Assembly: GCA_976226885.1 (NCBI GenBank)
Contig: OZ320313.1
Span: 38,440,001-38,504,000, forward strand
DNA length: 64,000 nt
Direction of reading: 5' to 3'
Source of the DNA: Iphione sp. A-MEVVRFRX5
Lineage: Eukaryota
Shown here: piece after piece, positions 21,161 to 30,994 of the stretch
Numbering within the stretch: position 1 is the stretch's first letter
Layout of the letters: the number at the start of each line of letters is the position of its first letter
Translations under genes and position numbers: made by a program
The notes under the pieces: generated by a model
What the model saw: the letters and a program-made list of their open reading frames with translations, nothing else
What the model was told of the DNA's origin: nothing
Database searches by the model: none

Positions 21161-21324
21161 GTGTTCATATGATATGTACTGACCTATTTACACTGAATGA
21201 TATTGATATTACTTTAACCACTTCGCTACTTATCAATTATTTACTAGTGTTCATATGATATGTAGTGACCTATTTACACTGGATGATATTGATATCACTT
21301 TAACCACTTCGCTACTTATCAATT
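21161..21324. repeat. 86-bp tandem duplication
   Basis: gtgttcatatgatatgta...ccacttcgctacttatcaatt starts at 21161 and again at 21247, with few substitutions. Confidence 0.9.
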
Positions 21325-24300
21325 CTTAAGTTATTACTTTTTTTACATGTTTGATATTAATTTGCGAAAATAATACCATACCACAGTAATGGATCATGCT
21401 CCTCTTAACGTTTCAGGTTTCATTGATTTTGGTACAAAAATTATACAATAATATCTTAAGGGCAACCCGCACAACATCCCGTAAAGAATTGTAATACGTG
21501 TATATTGACGAACTGATTCTATTGCAGTCAAATAATATTAGGTTAGAATGAGACTAAATAAAATTCATTTGGATTCGAGAACAGTTAGGCTCCTTCGTTG
21601 AAGTATAACTGCGTGGAAGAATCATAATGAACCGGGAAACGAAAACAGCTTGTCTAAGCAGATTTTATACCAAGTGGTGCCAATTTTCCCGGTGGGTAAA
21701 CCTATACCCATTGCACCGTACGTAGTACTGTTTCATTTTCATTTTTATGTGTATTGATTTGTTTTATATGCCATCTGCAGCAAATTGCTTTAGATGTTTT
21801 TTCTGTTTCGTTTCCGAGATAAAGTCAATAAAGAACAAAGCACGGGCATCTATAATTATCTACACACCTTTGATTTCAACTATCACTTAGGCCTGGTATA
21901 TGTATATGTAAAGATACGCACACATACCTCAACGAAGGTAAGTAAACTCCGAGTTCCCGGTAAGATGCTGAAAACACATGGAGTCAGGAGGTAGGTGCTT
22001 AGATTGCCCAGATTTACTTGCTTAGATTTTTATGAAACTGATATTGTGTGAAGGCCAAGCCTCTAGGAAGAGAATAATGTATTTCATAAGTCTATATCAT
22101 TATTCATTCAAGAGACATGCACAAAACAAGACAGAAATATAGAGTTACAACTGGCCAAAATGTAGGTTCAGTCAGGTAAGCGGAAACACAGATCTTTTTT
22201 TATTAGGACTTATATATGACACACGTTTTATGTAGCCCAGATATGTGAGAATGCACATTAGAATAACAGTTGCCTTCATACCGGATTAAACATCTATTAC
22301 TAATTATCATGAGATTAATTTAATTGCTTCCATGTGAATATTCCTGGAATTATATATCTGATGGCCCTTTAATGAGAAAAGTAAAAATTCTGATGCAAAC
22401 CTACTGACAGGCGAGGAATATGTGGTGTCATAGAAGTAAGCCCACGTTGCAACCGCTGTAAATCTCTCTGTATATAGACATATACATTCATATGATTTTT
22501 ATGTATTTTAATATAAATATTTTAAGCTGTATCATTTACCGAACCTCACGAAATGAATCACCTATACCACCTGTTTCCCTCTAAGCCATTGCATCCAACG
22601 ATTACGGTTGCTTTCCTAACATTCACTGTTTTATACTAGGCGCCATAACCTGTGATTTAATCTCTGCCCTTAGGAATGGTTTAACCATGATATTATATCA
22701 TGTAGTGTGAATTTTAGATAGCTTATAAAACAAGCCCTGTGGTGTACAAATACTCAGTTCTCTTATTTTAGACATAAGCTTTCGTACCTCTCTCTTGCCA
22801 ATCCGCTGCCTTTTCCTCCTACCCGTTCTCACCGTGTGTCCTATCTCCAACTATTCTGTATAAATAATTTCTTTACTTGCATGCTGATTCTCCATCGTTT
22901 GACCATCCCTGATTCCATTTGTCTTGCAGCTTAAACTCTCAATACTTCTCATAACATCCTCGTTTCATTCTTTAGACCCTTATTTTTCCTGAGCATTTAA
23001 GTGATGAAGATATTCATCCGACAATATTAATGCGCTGACGTACAAGAATGAGCTATGTACAATTATGTATCAGAAGCAATTGAAGAGGTACCGCAAGAAT
23101 TACCATATCAAAAGCCTAATTGCAATATCGAAGTCTGGTAGACATATACTTGCCGCCGTCTAGTCAATCGTTCCTTATGTTATTACACAAAAGAATTGAC
23201 CCATTAAGATGGGCTGAAAGAGACATACATAGAAAAAAGGGGCTATAGACAAGAGACGGTGTCGAGGGAGTCCACAGCCCCGTTCACAATCTACGGGCAA
23301 GCTTATTGTTCTCCAGTAATATACTCATGTGTTTTTCAGATGATGTATATATTATATACAAACCTACTGTTTAAAACTGGTCTGCTCTTGAAAGCGACGC
23401 GTGTTGGGAGGGCCAACAAGTTTGCGGCCTTACAGAAGAAGGCGTTTTCCTCTTTATAGATATTATTATTTTTAGATTTTAGAAATAAACTGTTGATGCT
23501 TTCTCTCACTTAAACAATTCGGAGTTACCCGTTATAAAAGCTTTTAAACCATACTTCTCAATTATTGTGCCAGTTAGTATCTGAGATTTGCAAGTTCAAA
23601 TGAAATGGCACTCTTCGCTCGATGAATAGCGGCACCATTGAACAACAGCATTTTCTCATCACCGTTGTCCTTAATTGAAATAGAAACAACGTGGTTTCTG
23701 TAACCTCCCTCACCTTTTTTACTGCAAATATGCATACAATTTTTACTCATGACATCCCCATATTCGGCATTTGCCACATTTGGATCATTCCCCTTCCTTA
23801 TTGACCGGCATGTCTATTTATCACCACCCAATAACTGTCCTTTACCTATCATATATTGACTTACTCAGTCCCCTATCCGTCACCCAACCCCCTGCCAGTC
23901 ATTACCATTGATTCAGTCTCTGTAACGTGGCCATATAAAGAGACCCTAAACGCGCAGTGAACACCCACCACTGTTTACCCCTTCTGACTGAGGTAAACCT
24001 GTGGGGACAATAGGGATCGTGGTGAGGAGGAGGTGCGGAGCGCGAACACAATCGACCTATTGGTTGAAGGGGAGGGGGTTAGTGGAGGCGGGGAGGAAAT
24101 AGCCGACGGCGTTCTGGCCGCTGATTGGCTAAATGATTGATAGTAATTCGCCGTCGTTGGTTTCATCAGATTCCGATCAGGGGAGGGTTACTGAGGGCGA
24201 GGGGTGGATGGCTAGGAGCTTGGAAGGGGGTGGGTGGGTAGGTGGGTGGGAAGGCGAATTGAGAGTAGGGAAAGGCAAGTTATAAGGGATAGGAAAACAG

Positions 24301-25388: not shown

Positions 25389-25786
25389 CTGAAGGAGAGA
25401 GACAAACATGAGTAGTAGTATTTCATAGATTATAAGGAGATCACATCGTCATGTGTGTTAGTAATGAAGTTATTTGTTCCCCACTTTGATGTTTGGTCTG
25501 AGCCCCCATGCAATAACAACCTTTGGTTGAGCTAGAAACATAGTAAAGAACCATGAACTATAAACTATGGGCATACCACAAATATGCACATTGTACACTG
25601 TACAAGCGTTGTAAGTAGTATATGGAAAGGGATAGGGGACACGGTAAGGAGAAGGGAATTCCTCCTTTACCCATAAACAATTTACAGTCCTCTTATAAAA
25701 GATACGAAGAAGTCTCTATACAAAATGTATCTGTGTACATCTAACACAGTTTGATGATCAGCAGTGTTACATTTACGTATATATAT

Positions 25787-25933
25787 ATATGTCGAATAAG
25801 ACAGTTTATTTGAATATTGTTAGGGGATACCAAGACAACGTTCTGCATACATGGTAACCGCCATGACGACCTATGACGTCTAAGCATAGATAGAACATAT
25901 TGTACACTAACCGTCATTCCACTCCGATTTTTT
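25787..25933 (+). repeat. Split direct repeat A1 (147 bp)
   Basis: Identical to 29834-29980 by direct comparison (atatgtcgaataagacag...cattccactccgatttttt). Confidence 0.97.
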
Positions 25934-25968
25934 TGAGGAGGTGGACGTGTCGCTGGTTGTCGTGAATT

Positions 25969-26937
25969 ATGGCTAGATATTGTTCTAGATGCGACCGCAA
26001 ACATAATTCCCCTGTGGGGAAGAAATGCAGGCTTGACACCAACATTGTCTCGGACATCGCTTCGAAGGATTTCAATGTTATTGAGGGTTTGAGTCCCTCT
26101 GGTGATACGACAATTGGTGATAGGGCAGAAATGTCTGTTCCTGAAACATCCATTGGTAATGGTGAGGATTTCGCGGCTAGAATGGGAAGGTTGGAGAATA
26201 TGTTCTCAATCTTCTTGGCTTCGAATGGTGACGCTAAGGTGGTGAACGCTACTTTATCATCATTGTCGAAGGAGGCGGATGTTGACAAGAAATGTGGGTC
26301 ATCGTCAGGCGCCGCGAAGGGTGACAGCTCAAGTTATGATTCTTCATCGTCCTCTGATAGCGAGGAGGAGGACAAGAGAAAGAAAAGGCGTTCGAGGGGT
26401 AAGAAGAAGGACTTTAATATTGAAAGGGCTGTCAAAGCCAAAAAGATCGAGAATTTCGATCAACTTATGCTGGGCTCGATGAAATTACTGAAGCGGCACC
26501 TAGACAAAGAGAGAGACGTTTCCGGTTACATCGATCACCTCTTGTTTTTGCTAGAAAAACGTGTTAAAGGTGTTTATAGAGACTCATCGTTCATTGACTA
26601 TGATGCCGACATAAGGAAACGTGCAAGTAAGAAAGGTCTGAACCAGTTTAAATTTGGAGATGATGAGCTTATCAGATCGCATTTTTCATTCGACATGATG
26701 CTAGCCGGCACCCAACAGGGGAGCGGTAAGAGCAGGGTTAAAGTGAAGAAAGGCGTGGATGGTAAGAAAAGTGATAAGGTCTGCTACCGTTATAATAATG
26801 GAACATGCCACGATGTTAATTGCAATTTTAAGCATGCATGCTTGGTATGCGGTGTAGAAGATCACAAAGCGTATGAATGTGCGAAAAATGTGAATAATTC
26901 TGACAAGAGCAAAGAGCAGAAGGCCAGTAAGAAGTGA
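25969..26937 (+). CDS. gag: Gag-like ORF1 (322 aa)
   Basis: ATG 35 nt after A1. N-terminal CSRCDRKHNSPVGKKC, Ser/acidic tract, basic KRKKRRSRGKKK, and C-terminal Cys/His array CYRYNNGTCHDVNCNFKHACLVCGVEDHKAYEC. Position and motifs fit DIRS/Ngaro ORF1. Confidence 0.9.
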   Translation: MARYCSRCDRKHNSPVGKKCRLDTNIVSDIASKDFNVIEGLSPSGDTTIGDRAEMSVPETSIGNGEDFAARMGRLENMFSIFLASNGDAKVVNATLSSLSKEADVDKKCGSSSGAAKGDSSSYDSSSSSDSEEEDKRKKRRSRGKKKDFNIERAVKAKKIENFDQLMLGSMKLLKRHLDKERDVSGYIDHLLFLLEKRVKGVYRDSSFIDYDADIRKRASKKGLNQFKFGDDELIRSHFSFDMMLAGTQQGSGKSRVKVKKGVDGKKSDKVCYRYNNGTCHDVNCNFKHACLVCGVEDHKAYECAKNVNNSDKSKEQKASKK

Positions 26938-28851
26938 CTAGAAGGAGGTGTAGCTGATCCAGATAGTTCTGCGCAGTTGTTTAAATTCCCAGAATTCTTA
27001 CCAGTTGAGTATGTGGGAGTGGACAACATTTGTCAACTTTCAGATGAAGACTTGATGAACCTTCATTTAAGTGTTGATATAGGCAGTTCATGCTGGCTGA
27101 TATTTGTCGATGATAGTAGTGTCCCAGCTGGCGACAAATATGTTTTGAATTGTTACACTGTATTTAATGGCACGAGAGTGATCAAAGTGTATGATTCATG
27201 CATGAAGAATGAATGTTTATGCAACCATGTAATTGGTGAAGTGCAGAGTCCCTTATTACCTTGCAGATTCTTTAGGGGGTGTGCGTTTGGTAGTATGGAC
27301 TTGAAAAGTCGGTTATTCATCTGGGATGGCGTGGTTAATGGTTTCAAAATCGTTGATGATTCCTTCGACGGATCCTACTTCTGTAGGAATTATAACTCTA
27401 TTTTAGCAGAGCCGTTTAAGTGTCAGATGACAGAGAAGGTGATGAAGGAATTAGATGCAGGCTTTGTGAGTCTAGTCAAGGAGAGACCAAGATGTATTCA
27501 CGCAATGGGAGGAGTGCCCAAGTCGGATGGTAGTTTGAGGCCGATCACAGATTGCTCACGACCCGCTGGTGTAAGCATTAACAACTATATGGATTCCGTT
27601 TTCGAAGAATTCTCCTACAATTCGGTGGGTAGCGTGTGTCGGTTCCTATGTCATGGAGACCACATGAGTGTGGTGGACATAAGTAACGCGTACAGATCAG
27701 TGTTTGTTAGTGAGGATTGTAGGGAGGTCCAAGGCTTCACTTGGGAGTTGGAAGGAGAACAAAGATTCTTTGTTAGTAACACGCTGACTTTCGGGCTGAA
27801 ATGCGCACCATACATTTTCAGTAAGTTGTCTGATTTTGTGGTTATGGAGTACATACACAAGAAAAATGATAGGATTGTCAACTACCTCGATGACTTCATT
27901 GTATGTGGCCCAACTTATGAGGAATGTTTGGATAGCAGGTCTGTGTTGACGGATGTGATCAATGGGCTTGGTTTCATGGTGTCATGGAAGAAAGTGACAG
28001 TCCCTGATACAAAGTGCATTTACTTGGGAATCGAGATTGATAGTGTGTCCATGACCCTAAGACTCCCGGAAGGAAAGCTTGAAAAGATGAGGTCGTTGTT
28101 GCAGGAGGTCACGCTGAAGAATAAGATGAATAGGAAGGAAGGAGAGAAGCTTTCGGGTTATCTTTCCCATTGTGCTACTATTATCAACGGAGGTAGGACT
28201 TTTTGTAAGAACATTTACAGATTTGTTGATCAGCTTCCAAGGAGCAATAAGGAGGTGGAGCTGGAGAGTCATGTGTTGGATGACCTAAGTTGGTGGAAGT
28301 CTTTTGCTAGTCTATTCAATGGGATTGGAAAGATTATTTGTTGGGACAAACCGGACTTCATCTGTACCACTGATTCTTCATTTAGTGGCTTTGGTGGCTA
28401 TTTTGGAAGAGACTGGTTCGTAGGGTTTTGGGAGAGTGGCCCTGATTCAGTTGGTTGTGGTCATGTTGAACCAATCCCAAGCATGGATCTCAAGGAAAGG
28501 AATATTAACGTCTTTGAGCTTTGGCCGGTCCTTATCAGTCTCAGGAGGTGGGGACGGGTCTGGAAAGGTGGTTCTATCTTGTTCTACACAGATAACACCC
28601 AAGTCCTGCAGATGATCCGTACGGGAAGGAGCAGTAATGTCACTTGTATGTGGTGGATCAAAGAAATATTTTGGTTGTGTATGGTGTATAAAATTAGAGT
28701 GACGGCCGACTACATAAATACTAAGGAGAATGTGATTGCGGATAACCTTTCTCGTTGGTCGAAGGAAAATTTTGTGATTTGTGATGTTTGGTCTAGTTGG
28801 CTTGAGACGGCCTGTTGTAAATGGGCTTTGTCTTCTTGCAGGGAAGGTTAG
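26938..28851 (+). CDS. pol: Reverse transcriptase-RNase H ORF2 (open from the codon after the gag stop, 637 codons; first ATG at 27055)
   Basis: RT motifs RPITDCS, VVDISNAYR, LTFGLKCAPYIF, NYLDDF, YLGIEIDS. RNase H motifs TTDSSFSGFGG, INVFELWPV, YTDNTQV, NVIADNLSR, with all four acidic residues present. Confidence 0.95.
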   Translation, partial: LEGGVADPDSSAQLFKFPEFLPVEYVGVDNICQLSDEDLMNLHLSVDIGSSCWLIFVDDSSVPAGDKYVLNCYTVFNGTRVIKVYDSCMKNECLCNHVIGEVQSPLLPCRFFRGCAFGSMDLKSRLFIWDGVVNGFKIVDDSFDGSYFCRNYNSILAEPFKCQMTEKVMKELDAGFVSLVKERPRCIHAMGGVPKSDGSLRPITDCSRPAGVSINNYMDSVFEEFSYNSVGSVCRFLCHGDHMSVVDISNAYRSVFVSEDCREVQGFTWELEGEQRFFVSNTLTFGLKCAPYIFSKLSDFVVMEYIHKKNDRIVNYLDDFIVCGPTYEECLDSRSVLTDVINGLGFMVSWKKVTVPDTKCIYLGIEIDSVSMTLRLPEGKLEKMRSLLQEVTLKNKMNRKEGEKLSGYLSHCATIINGGRTFCKNIYRFVDQLPRSNKEVELESHVLDDLSWWKSFASLFNGIGKIICWDKPDFICTTDSSFSGFGGYFGRDWFVGFWESGPDSVGCGHVEPIPSMDLKERNINVFELWPVLISLRRWGRVWKGGSILFYTDNTQVLQMIRTGRSSNVTCMWWIKEIFWLCMVYKIRVTADYINTKENVIADNLSRWSKENFVICDVWSSWLETACCKWALSSCREG

Positions 28852-29161
28852 AGAATTGATGGAAAACATGCGCCGGTTGAAATCGAAGGCTTTCTCAGAA
28901 AACACCCTGAAGACGAGGAAGAAGCAAGAAGAGGTTTACCTTGTGTTTTGTAAGGATTTCGACTTCAAGCCATATCCTTGTGGTCAACACCAATTATTGT
29001 GTTATTGTTCGTACCTTTGTAGGGCGCTACATGCAAACTCGGTGAAGAATTATTTAAGTGGGCTGGTGTTTGAACACAAGATTAGGGGTCTTCAGGCTCC
29101 GGATGTCTCTGATTATAATATCAAATGGATGGTCGATGGTTTAAGGAGATCTGTAACATGA
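28781..29161 (+). CDS. Tyrosine recombinase ORF3, N-terminal (core-binding/SAM-like) part; ends at a frameshift
   Basis: KAFSENTLKTRKKQEEVYLVFC...LLCYCSYL...NSVKNYLSGL..EHKIRG...DGLRR matches the helical N-terminal domain of DIRS/Ngaro YRs. Overlaps the pol 3' end; ATG at 28859. Confidence 0.85.
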   Translation: MMFGLVGLRRPVVNGLCLLAGKVRELMENMRRLKSKAFSENTLKTRKKQEEVYLVFCKDFDFKPYPCGQHQLLCYCSYLCRALHANSVKNYLSGLVFEHKIRGLQAPDVSDYNIKWMVDGLRRSVT

Positions 29162-29787
29162 TAAGCTGGTCCTCGGACGGCTTGTCTGTGGAGGATATTA
29201 GTAAATTGTATGATGTTGTCAATTTTAGGAATCAGTTTGACTTAGTCTTCTGGTGTGCTATTTTATTAGGTTTTAGGTCGTTATTGAGGAAATGCCACTT
29301 CACAGGTAATGCTATTTTAAAGAGGGGTGATGTTATGTTGGATGACAACAAGGTCACCTTACTTATTCGTCGTTCTAAAACAGACCAATTTGGTAGTAAG
29401 CCTAGGAAAATTGTTCTTGCGTGTTGTGAGAACAAAAGGTTTTGTTTGGTGTTTTGGTTAGGGATGCTTTTCTCTATCATCAAATTGAAGAGCGACTCTC
29501 CAATTTTCAATTTTTATGTCAAATCCAAAATCTGTGAGTTAGATTACGACATCTTCCAGAGAGAATTGAAGAGGCTTTCTAAGCTAGCTGGTATAGTTGG
29601 TAGGATAACCTCCCATTCCCTGAGGAGAGGGGGTACTTCACATTTAGCGAGGTTAGGGGTTCCTCTGCACATCATCAAAGATAGAGGTGGATGGAATAGC
29701 AATGCTGTGTATACATACATTAAACCTACAGAGGATGATTTATTAGCTAAAGATCTTCCTGTTGCTTTTTCCTTGGGGTTGGCCTAA
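29125..29787 (+). CDS. Tyrosine recombinase ORF3, catalytic domain (-1 frame relative to the N-terminal part)
   Basis: Catalytic set present: R (SLLRK), K (RSKTDQ), HxxR (SHSLRRGG), W (GGWNS), Y (AVYTYI). The TAA stop at 29785-29787 lies inside repeat B1. Confidence 0.93.
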   Translation: MDGRWFKEICNMISWSSDGLSVEDISKLYDVVNFRNQFDLVFWCAILLGFRSLLRKCHFTGNAILKRGDVMLDDNKVTLLIRRSKTDQFGSKPRKIVLACCENKRFCLVFWLGMLFSIIKLKSDSPIFNFYVKSKICELDYDIFQRELKRLSKLAGIVGRITSHSLRRGGTSHLARLGVPLHIIKDRGGWNSNAVYTYIKPTEDDLLAKDLPVAFSLGLA

Positions 29788-29837
29788 TTGAGGGCATGTA
29801 TTCCCCCAATTGGTGTTCATGTGTATCACTTCAATAT
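29782..29837 (+). repeat. Split direct repeat B1 (56 bp)
   Basis: gcctaattgagggcatgtattcccccaattggtgttcatgtgtatcacttcaatat, identical to 29991-30046. Confidence 0.97.
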
Positions 29838-29980
29838 GTCGAATAAGACAGTTTATTTGAATATTGTTAGGGGATACCAAGACAACGTTCTGCATACATG
29901 GTAACCGCCATGACGACCTATGACGTCTAAGCATAGATAGAACATATTGTACACTAACCGTCATTCCACTCCGATTTTTT
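29834..29980 (+). repeat. Split direct repeat A2 (147 bp)
   Basis: Identical to A1; shares ATAT (29834-29837) with B1. Confidence 0.97.
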
Positions 29981-29984
29981 CTTT

Positions 29985-29990
29985 AATAAA
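29985..29990 (+). promoter_or_regulatory. Putative polyadenylation signal AATAAA in the A2-B2 spacer
   Basis: The spacer ctttaataaa (29981-29990) ends in the canonical hexamer directly before B2. Confidence 0.6.
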
Positions 29991-30046
29991 GCCTAATTGA
30001 GGGCATGTATTCCCCCAATTGGTGTTCATGTGTATCACTTCAATAT
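29991..30046 (+). repeat. Split direct repeat B2 (56 bp), 3' end of the element
   Basis: Identical to B1; ends ...caatat and runs into flank atgtatatt. Confidence 0.97.
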
Positions 30047-30994
30047 ATGTATATTAACTACCAACAATCACAACGCTTTTCATCGTGTTATATTAATTTG
30101 TTCCAAATCTCCTTTCTGTGATGTTCTTACTAGTCAGGGAGAAACGGTTATAAATTCTCTTGGTCACACACTGCTTTGTGACGTTCTTCTAAATAGAGCA
30201 ATGATTCTTCTGAAAAATCCATCCTTAATTATTTGGCTACAATTAATACCCCCTCCCGACAAAAAACAATAAACAAACTTAGCCAGAAAGTTCGTATACC
30301 GACCAATAATGTTTGTCGTCTCCAGAGTTCCTTCCCAACCACGTCCCACCTTCTACAGTATCCCCGTTTCCCATGACCAATGTCTCCTTCGCTCAGAGGC
30401 CAACGCACATCATATCATCATTCCGTATCAGTTTTCCCACAAGATTGCTATTTGTCCACTGCGTATATTCATGGTTAAAACTGGATCCCTTCAGTGATGC
30501 TGACCGCTGTTACCCATAGCTGCGTGAGCCCAATGCCTGTACATGTACAATATGTCCCCTAATAGTTTACCCCTTAAAGCTGCATACGATTAAGTCCATG
30601 TCGTGTTGCTCGGACATTTGTCAACAAACCAACTCTGTGGTTTTTTTAACGTCCTAGGTACTCCCTGGCTAAGAGTAGAAGCACTTAGTTATAGGAAAAC
30701 ATTGGACAAGAGAAGCTTACGGTTTTTTTAACCTCGTTGAGCGCCGGCTGCGCGTAGACATAAATTGTTTCCTAACCTCATGCATGAAACATAAGTATTT
30801 CCTATCCCTCCCAGCCCGCCCGCCAGCATGGCTCCCCATACCGCCAAACCAACCGACTACCGGTCGGGCAGCAATGCATCACTTACCACGTGACCTGGTG
30901 GTAGCCAATCAGGGCCCGTACTAGACAGACCCTACGTGCTGCCCTACACTCTGCTAAAGGCGGCCTGATAGATGAGTTTAAGGCAAATCCAAAA

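Follow-up and report, generated by a model that had tools for sequence, protein, structure and literature searches.

The question raised by this locus is how pol is translated when its reading frame continues that of gag across a single stop codon. The locus lies in a 64,000-nt stretch of DNA from Iphione sp. A-MEVVRFRX5 (contig OZ320313.1, positions 38,440,001 to 38,504,000 of the forward strand), hereafter the window, whose own numbering is used throughout. Within it, a complete Ngaro-type tyrosine-recombinase retrotransposon was delimited by its repeats and open reading frames (ORFs) at 25787-30046, + strand. The features of this element that bear on the translation of pol are as follows.

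25969 to 26937, + strand: gag-like ORF1, 322 aa, from the ATG at 25969 to the TGA at 26935-26937; full-length gag is present in 73 copies
26782 to 26880, + strand: C-terminal CCCH and CCHC motif of Gag, found from the sequence and a motif search, which we take to be zinc-finger-like
26929 to 26940, + strand: candidate readthrough cassette AAG AAG TGA CTA (purine at -1, UGA, then CUR, where R is a purine), from the survey of copies
26938 to 28851, + strand: pol ORF in the same frame as gag, 637 codons, with an N-terminal domain, reverse transcriptase (RT) and RNase H (ORF and Pfam)
27055 to 27057, + strand: first in-frame ATG past the stop, codon 40; its position varies from codon 3 to 176 in 84 intact copies
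27514 to 28038, + strand: RT domain, Pfam RVT_1, E 5.8e-17; its fold matches the RTs of murine leukaemia virus (MLV) and human immunodeficiency virus
28360 to 28755, + strand: region with TDSS...ELWP...DNT...ADNLSR, motifs recognized by eye, presumably RNase H

According to the first-pass annotation of this stretch, a single TGA separates gag from a pol that continues its frame, and this was borne out: the sequence it quoted is correct, pol stays open from 26938 to the TAG at 28849-28851, and the first in-frame ATG is codon 40 past the stop. Translated through the stop, the two frames would give a product of 960 aa. The same annotation had proposed programmed UGA readthrough to a Gag-Pol fusion of ~960 aa; conservation among copies supports that proposal, and we infer, with a probability of roughly 0.85, that ribosomes read through UGA-CUR at low frequency to make Gag-RT-RNase H. 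We hold this view because gag and pol share a frame, the stop and the codon that follows it (the +1 codon) are fixed, the segment past the stop is under coding constraint, and no conserved start codon or splice acceptor is found there. No Pfam RNase H match was obtained in the window copy, and a related protein record, P0152, has a weak RT_RNaseH match; no protease domain was detected in the element.

Conservation of the stop and the +1 codon

An initial DNA search seeded on the junction returned 30 loci, all alike, and the survey was therefore re-seeded with the RT domain alone. The sample so obtained comprises 145 of the best 150 genome matches listed to that domain, the five left out lying among ranks 128, 129, 130, 132, 135, and 137: 122 have junctions of the main type, 14 (L133 and L136-L148) form a sister clade or separate lineage, and in nine the junction was not located. 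An automatic rule (the zinc finger, then the next stop) resolves 107 main-clade junctions, and the 122 consist of this automatic set together with broken copies assigned by inspection.

The stop was TGA in 107/107 automatically resolved junctions, and the base before it was a purine in every one. The +1 codon was CTA in 95, CTG in 9, CCA in 2, and CAA in 1, CTR making up 104/107, and CTT, CTC, TTA, and TTG were never seen in that position. With respect to frame, 84 of the 107 were in frame and free of stops up to the RT, eight were in frame with stops, and 15 were shifted further downstream. By way of control, the stop that ends pol in 52 long ORFs was TAG in 19, TGA in 18, and TAA in 15. Aligning the copies, which the first-pass annotation had suggested as a check, revealed that frame and stop identity were kept and that no located junction had a sense codon: TGA was found at 120 of the 122 main-type junctions (117 with CTA or CTG next), TAA-CTA at one, and a deletion at one. 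Because the window copy is damaged elsewhere, its recombinase frame being changed, one might suspect that the TGA arose by nonsense mutation in this copy alone, within a gag-pol ORF otherwise unbroken, or that the two ORFs abut in frame by chance; the copy survey refutes both readings, and we put their probability at close to nil.

The annotation had also proposed a comparison with neighboring sites, and here the +1 codon proved to be fixed at the nucleotide level, whereas other conserved Leu columns vary. CTA was used in 59/66 cases at +1 versus 163/2,107 (8%) of Leu codons elsewhere, and among ten further Leu columns that are conserved, the most frequent codon reached only 0.23-0.46; CTA and CTG together follow 2.8% of all TGA triplets within these loci. 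The copies are not the product of one recent burst, because the 67 intact copies split into 55 clusters at 70% identity over the 150 nt past the +1 codon (median identity, 49%). Across these 55 lineages (<70% identity), the junction was TGA-CTA in 48, TGA-CTG in six, and TGA-CAA in one, TGA itself being found in 55/55, and the CTG lineages occupy several separate branches of the RT tree (a tree of unnamed sequences). From these codon counts, the stop and the +1 codon are judged to be under nucleotide-level selection in the main clade.

The conserved signal is the type II hexamer UGA-CUA/CUG (UGA-CUR) and not the CUAG heptamer. The first-pass annotation had pointed to UGA-CUAG as the readthrough context; its UGA-CUA/CUG portion is kept in 104/107 junctions, but the seventh base was G in 46, T in 45, C in 8, and A in 8, and UGA-CUAG is ruled out as a family motif by its G in only 46/107.

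The family itself is highly diverse: its 67 intact copies represent 55 lineages, mostly of one or two copies each, and many ORFs are open.

Coding past the stop

Within the first 10 codons past the TGA, stops were present in frame 0 in 2/107 copies and in the other frames in 62 and 96, the frame +1 count being inflated by CTA-G. The absence of any stop over 15 codons across all 55 lineages has a chance of ~10^-26 by shuffling, but these lineages were drawn from intact copies, and the stop count over all 107 is therefore the fairer figure. An F-P motif 12-27 codons past the stop lies in frame 0 in 100/107 copies, broken copies included; no copy has it in a different frame, and seven have a substitution there. 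Length changes between the stop and this motif are of whole codons. The ratio of nonsynonymous to synonymous substitution rates (dN/dS), estimated from eight disjoint pairs, was 0.61 for codons +2 to +15, 0.45 for +16 to +90, 0.10 for +91 to +180, and 0.05 beyond. On these measures we consider the segment past the stop to be coding from its first codons. No start codon is correspondingly placed: the first ATG occurs anywhere from codon 3 to codon 176, lying past the conserved CxCxH in 9/67 copies, and the first nearly invariant Met of pol is codon 164.

The segment is predicted to enter a folded domain.

26968 to 27252, + strand: predicted N-terminal pol domain (AlphaFold), ~residues 11-105, with F-P, W, Y-x-V-F, and CxCxH

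AlphaFold returned a block with a predicted local distance difference test score (pLDDT) mostly of 85-97 from residue 11 and one loop at 63-69, the mean for the domain being 91 when modelled with the RT and 81 when modelled alone. The predicted domain begins at residue 11, ahead of the first ATG, and a start at codon 40 would cut away its first two strands. It is possibly zinc-binding. No Pfam match was found for it, and a fold search against solved structures gave none at E 0.001 (best Z, 3.6), which does not show that its fold is new.

The F-P motif also bears on a different route to pol, namely a spliced mRNA that bypasses the stop by joining a mid-gag phase-1 donor to an acceptor at F-P (TTY-CCA-G, where Y is a pyrimidine), 35-80 nt past the TGA, with TGACT as the branch point. 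The phases of the donor and of the F-P acceptor match, and the element evidently bears splice signals elsewhere (the gag donor and the recombinase acceptor, described below). Furthermore, CCA makes up 61/100 codons at the F-P Pro versus at most 26/66 in six other Pro columns, and a phase-1 YAG with a pyrimidine tract occurs within codons 5-40 in 36/55 lineages, as compared with 10-19 in control windows. However, CCA-G is found at F-P in only 40/100 copies, whereas YAG is found in 97/97 at the recombinase acceptor. Moreover, the part that would be intronic is free of stops, varies in length by whole codons only, and specifies the conserved peptide V-(Y/F)-S-F-P, which makes up strand 1 of the predicted domain. 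We consider such an mRNA improbable.

Splice sites closer to the stop were tried and rejected (exon boundaries are marked here by a slash): CTAG as an acceptor is present in 26/55 lineages and absent in 29, an AA/GTGACT donor (GT at -1) is present in 35/55 and absent in 20, and a donor-like GT three codons ahead of the stop occurs in only 39/73 copies.

Readthrough as the proposed mechanism, and what weighs against it

As a readthrough context, the hexamer UGA-CUA belongs to type II (PMC3159437, PMC13517186), and on its own it gives 1.5% readthrough, a purine at -1 being helpful (PMC4132726). In the mechanism that we propose, a single transcript would start from repeat A1, and most ribosomes would stop at the UGA and release Gag. 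By analogy with other read-through UGA codons, a near-cognate tRNA would insert Trp, Arg, or Cys. Readthrough at one to a few percent would fix the Gag:Pol ratio, and the predicted 960-aa fusion would carry RT into the Gag particle. Because no protease domain was detected, the fusion would be expected to remain uncut, or else to be cut by the host.

The UGA could conceivably be recoded otherwise, either by adenosine-to-inosine editing to a Trp codon or by selenocysteine insertion. Both need UGA specifically, and the fused record of the relative P0152 has Trp at the junction, although that may be a gene caller's reading or a private mutation. A search of Rfam, selenocysteine insertion sequence (SECIS) elements included, over 25600-30200 gave no match at E up to 1, however, and folding analyses found no conserved duplex over the stop. 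CUR at +1, in addition, is predicted by readthrough but not by editing or selenocysteine, and we regard both forms of recoding as very unlikely.

Several observations weigh against readthrough, including the Pro codon usage noted above and, as detailed in the following section, the +1 codons of the sister clade and the organization of some relatives. Type II sites in alphaviruses use 3' RNA structure, a feature that is general but not universal (PMC3159437). Folding past the stop in 45 lineages gave a mean z of about -0.5, and alignment folding of gap-free sets of 13 and 18 copies, whose divergence weakens the test, revealed no conserved 3' structure; one of 30 alignment windows reached a z of -3.1, in the five closest copies only, and it was lost in larger sets. 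Synonymous divergence (dS) is 0.37 in codons +16 to +90 but 0.71-0.96 beyond them, because of which a diffuse 3' structure at the junction may be possible. The dN/dS just past the stop is weak, and comes from the eight pairs only.

Tca2 of Candida albicans, a copia-type long terminal repeat (LTR) retrotransposon, is also to be set on this side. Its gag and pol are split by an in-frame UGA, as here, and in a reporter its junction directed no readthrough in yeast but had promoter activity (PMC2194720); in the present family, by contrast, a known leaky motif appears to be under nucleotide-level selection. Pol might accordingly be made without decoding the stop at all, by reinitiation after Gag, by internal initiation, or from a minor internal promoter like that of the Tca2 junction. 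An ATG stands at codon 5 in 7/14 sister-clade copies, and reinitiation or an internal promoter is more plausible in that clade; in the main clade, an in-frame ATG lies within 30 codons in 23/55 lineages. Nevertheless, any such start leaves the fixed TGA, the fixed CUR, and the shared frame unexplained. There is no ATG ahead of codon 90 in 9/55 lineages, codons 2-40 show no enrichment for Met (0.023 vs 0.029), and the ATG that overlaps the stop in 20/55 lineages opens only 3-11 codons. CUA itself is not a near-cognate start codon. We find translation of pol by any of these starts quite improbable, and retain programmed readthrough as the preferred explanation.

The sister clade and more distant relatives

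In the sister clade the gag/pol frame is kept, the stop being TGA in 13/14 copies and TAG in one. The next codon is AGG, AGT, GGA, TGT, TGG, CGT, CTG, or CTA, mostly one of the first five, which are no known leaky contexts. The mechanism by which the stop is bypassed may differ from that of the main clade. Codons 5-8 in this clade also carry a semi-conserved (M/K)-A-D-L.

Metagenomes yielded 47 related loci, of which 41 were examined, the other six having been dropped since their matches started within the RT or at the end of a contig. In 10/41, one stop separated a zinc-finger gag from a pol in the same frame, the junctions being TGA-CCT (2), TGA-CCA, TGA-ACG (2), TGA-CTG, TGA-TGT, TAG-GAT, TAG-GGA, and TAG-GAA. 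The zinc finger was in a different frame in 3/41, a separate upstream ORF was found with an ATG at pol codon 1 in another 3/41, and the remaining loci were mostly truncated or broken. Loci L168-L170 have a different organization, with a separate upstream ORF that ends 26 nt ahead of the stop bounding pol and an ATG as pol codon 1, and in L163, L165, and L178 the arrangement is gag-UAG-G-pol, like the retroviral type III context.

The protein record P0152, found by cluster look-up, is a Gag-Pol of 1,100 aa whose junction reads KRK-W-SH, as judged from the protein sequence alone, and it clusters with a relative that is ~45% identical in pol. A weak search with gag as the query found no long fused relatives among 7,999 candidates, and 0/91 candidate viral contigs were confirmed.

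The recombinase and a candidate intron

The recombinase has a putative solution of its own, in which splicing is predicted from the conservation of the sites listed here.

26396 to 26404, + strand: candidate phase-1 donor GGG/GTAAGA, exon end at 26398, from GGT conservation
28820 to 28842, + strand: candidate phase-1 acceptor, pyrimidine tract and CAG/G (AG at 28840-28841), at the start of the recombinase domain, from YAG conservation
28842 to 29787, + strand: tyrosine recombinase coding region, frame broken near 29119-29161; Pfam Phage_int_SAM_4 (weak) and Phage_integrase, E 3.6e-8

The donor, G/GTAAR, falls at gag codon 144, where GGT is used in 63/63 copies that have Gly there (of 73), as compared with 72/247 Gly-before-Lys codons elsewhere. 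Eight of the 10/73 copies without the codon-144 donor have a phase-1 GTRA nearby. A second phase-1 donor-like site lies at gag codon 223 (26635-26643), with GGT in 59/73, and each of the nine main-clade copies without the codon-144 donor has AAAG/GT there. At the acceptor, a YAG was found at a fixed distance from a Cys-Cys near the end of pol in 97/97 scored sequences (four more were not scored), the offset being 27 in 84, 30 in 11, and 28 in two. In 65 other copies an open recombinase frame extends 301-383 codons past the acceptor (312-319 in most), and the copies have no ATG position in common.

From these patterns a 2,443-nt intron (26399-28841) is likely, whose removal would fuse Gag(1-143) with a recombinase that has no start codon of its own, and the predicted Gag(1-143)-recombinase would be ~458 aa in intact copies. 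This predicted intron is independent of the gag stop. Spliced genomic copies, with gag joined to the recombinase, were sought by eye among the 150 gag and 150 recombinase matches listed, and in 20 recombinase loci that had no listed gag match; none was found in either set, both being weak evidence.

Class and state of the element

The element is bounded by split repeats, as follows.

25787 to 25933, + strand: split direct repeat A1 (repeat family D2), 147 nt, identical to A2
29782 to 29837, + strand: repeat B1 (repeat family D4)
29834 to 29980, + strand: repeat A2 (repeat family D2)
29991 to 30046, + strand: repeat B2 (repeat family D4)

The order A1-[ORFs]-B1A2B2 is found in the window copy and likewise in copies L031 and L138, and the co-oriented genes run gag-like ORF1, RT/RNase H, and tyrosine recombinase, the last taking the place of a DDE integrase. 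No Pfam match to a methyltransferase domain was obtained after the RNase H, and pol stops ~30 residues past ADNLSR. Repeats in this order define Ngaro (PMC8547959), and the absence of a methyltransferase separates Ngaro from DIRS1-like and PAT elements (PMC3266345). Because repeat order, gene order, and the missing methyltransferase all fit, the locus is a Ngaro-type tyrosine-recombinase retrotransposon, its homologues being without named reference elements. The nearest protein clusters with taxon labels are mostly mollusc- or cnidarian-rich.

The repeats of the window copy are 100% identical, yet its recombinase frame changes near 29119-29161, which suggests a copy that is young but defective. 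Both element ends (25775-25790 and 30040-30055) lie within (AT)n-like sequence, which matches the ATAT found where the B and A repeats meet, and the ends are as expected, from their sequence, of recombinase-mediated insertion without target duplication. Elsewhere in the window, at 21161-21327, is a tandem pair of 81-nt repeats, 95% identical and unrelated to the element.

Comparison with known systems

Published Ngaro elements (order DIRS), such as those of Cafeteria burkhardae, have the same repeats and gene order, with no methyltransferase detected; separate ORFs are described for them, and the accessible text does not address translation of pol or the recombinase (PMC8547959), whereas here we find an in-frame UGA-CUR and a recombinase acceptor. 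The first-pass annotation had taken overlapping ORFs to be the usual description of Ngaro, but these elements are described as usually being without ORF overlaps (PMC3266345); for the recombinase ORF, an overlap or a frameshift is possible (PMC3783388).

The same hexamer is found in the type II sites of Sindbis and related alphaviruses and of tobraviruses, where the polymerase is likewise a minor C-terminal extension (PMC3159437, PMC13517186). The present family differs from these viruses in being a retroelement, in tolerating CUG and not CGG, and in that no conserved 3' stem-loop was detected. UGA-CUA and a purine at -1 are shared with vertebrate OPRL1, OPRK1, AQP4, and MAPK10 (PMC4132726), and the window copy has the full CUAG; in the family, however, any base is accepted at the seventh position, and readthrough would add a 637-aa enzyme rather than a short tail. 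A Gag-Pol from an in-frame stop is shared with the gammaretrovirus MuLV, which uses UAG and a pseudoknot and has a protease (PMC2194720, PMC13517186), whereas the junction here is UGA-CUR, with no pseudoknot or protease detected. In-frame gag/pol stops are known in Tca2 and SIRE1, and MuLV Gag-Pol is made by readthrough (PMC2194720). The UAG-G of gammaretrovirus type (type III) is absent from the main clade (UGA-C in 107/107) and was seen only in three distant loci from metagenomes, each with a zinc-finger gag.

Searches of the open literature did not turn up gag-pol readthrough for Ngaro/DIRS elements, although Goodwin and Poulter 2004 and Poulter and Butler 2015 may mention the arrangement. 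It was not found in the accessible parts, supplements apart, of PMC3783388, PMC7192593, PMC6681497, PMC3266345, PMC8547959, PMC12440569, or bioRxiv 10.1101/2021.04.08.439009. Within the literature found, stop readthrough is a known mechanism, but not one described for the Ngaro group.

Implications

We lean, though only a little beyond an even chance, towards a wider scheme in which Ngaro-type elements across eukaryotes use one promoter, with readthrough (the signal switching among UGA-CUR, other UGA, and UAG-G) giving an uncleaved Gag-RT-RNase H, and with a conserved intron joining the Gag N-terminus to the recombinase. If this is true, the UGA-AGG and UGA-GGA junctions of the sister clade would carry a readthrough signal of a hitherto undescribed type. 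For annotation, gene callers that start pol at an internal ATG miss part of the conserved N-terminal domain. The 55 diverged lineages in one genome amount to a natural mutagenesis of the readthrough signal, in which selection appears to keep UGA-CU-purine while the seventh position is unconstrained and a strong 3' structure is not apparent. For tyrosine-recombinase retrotransposons that lack a protease, readthrough to Gag-Pol together with splicing to Gag-recombinase is a candidate answer to the question of how their genes are expressed.

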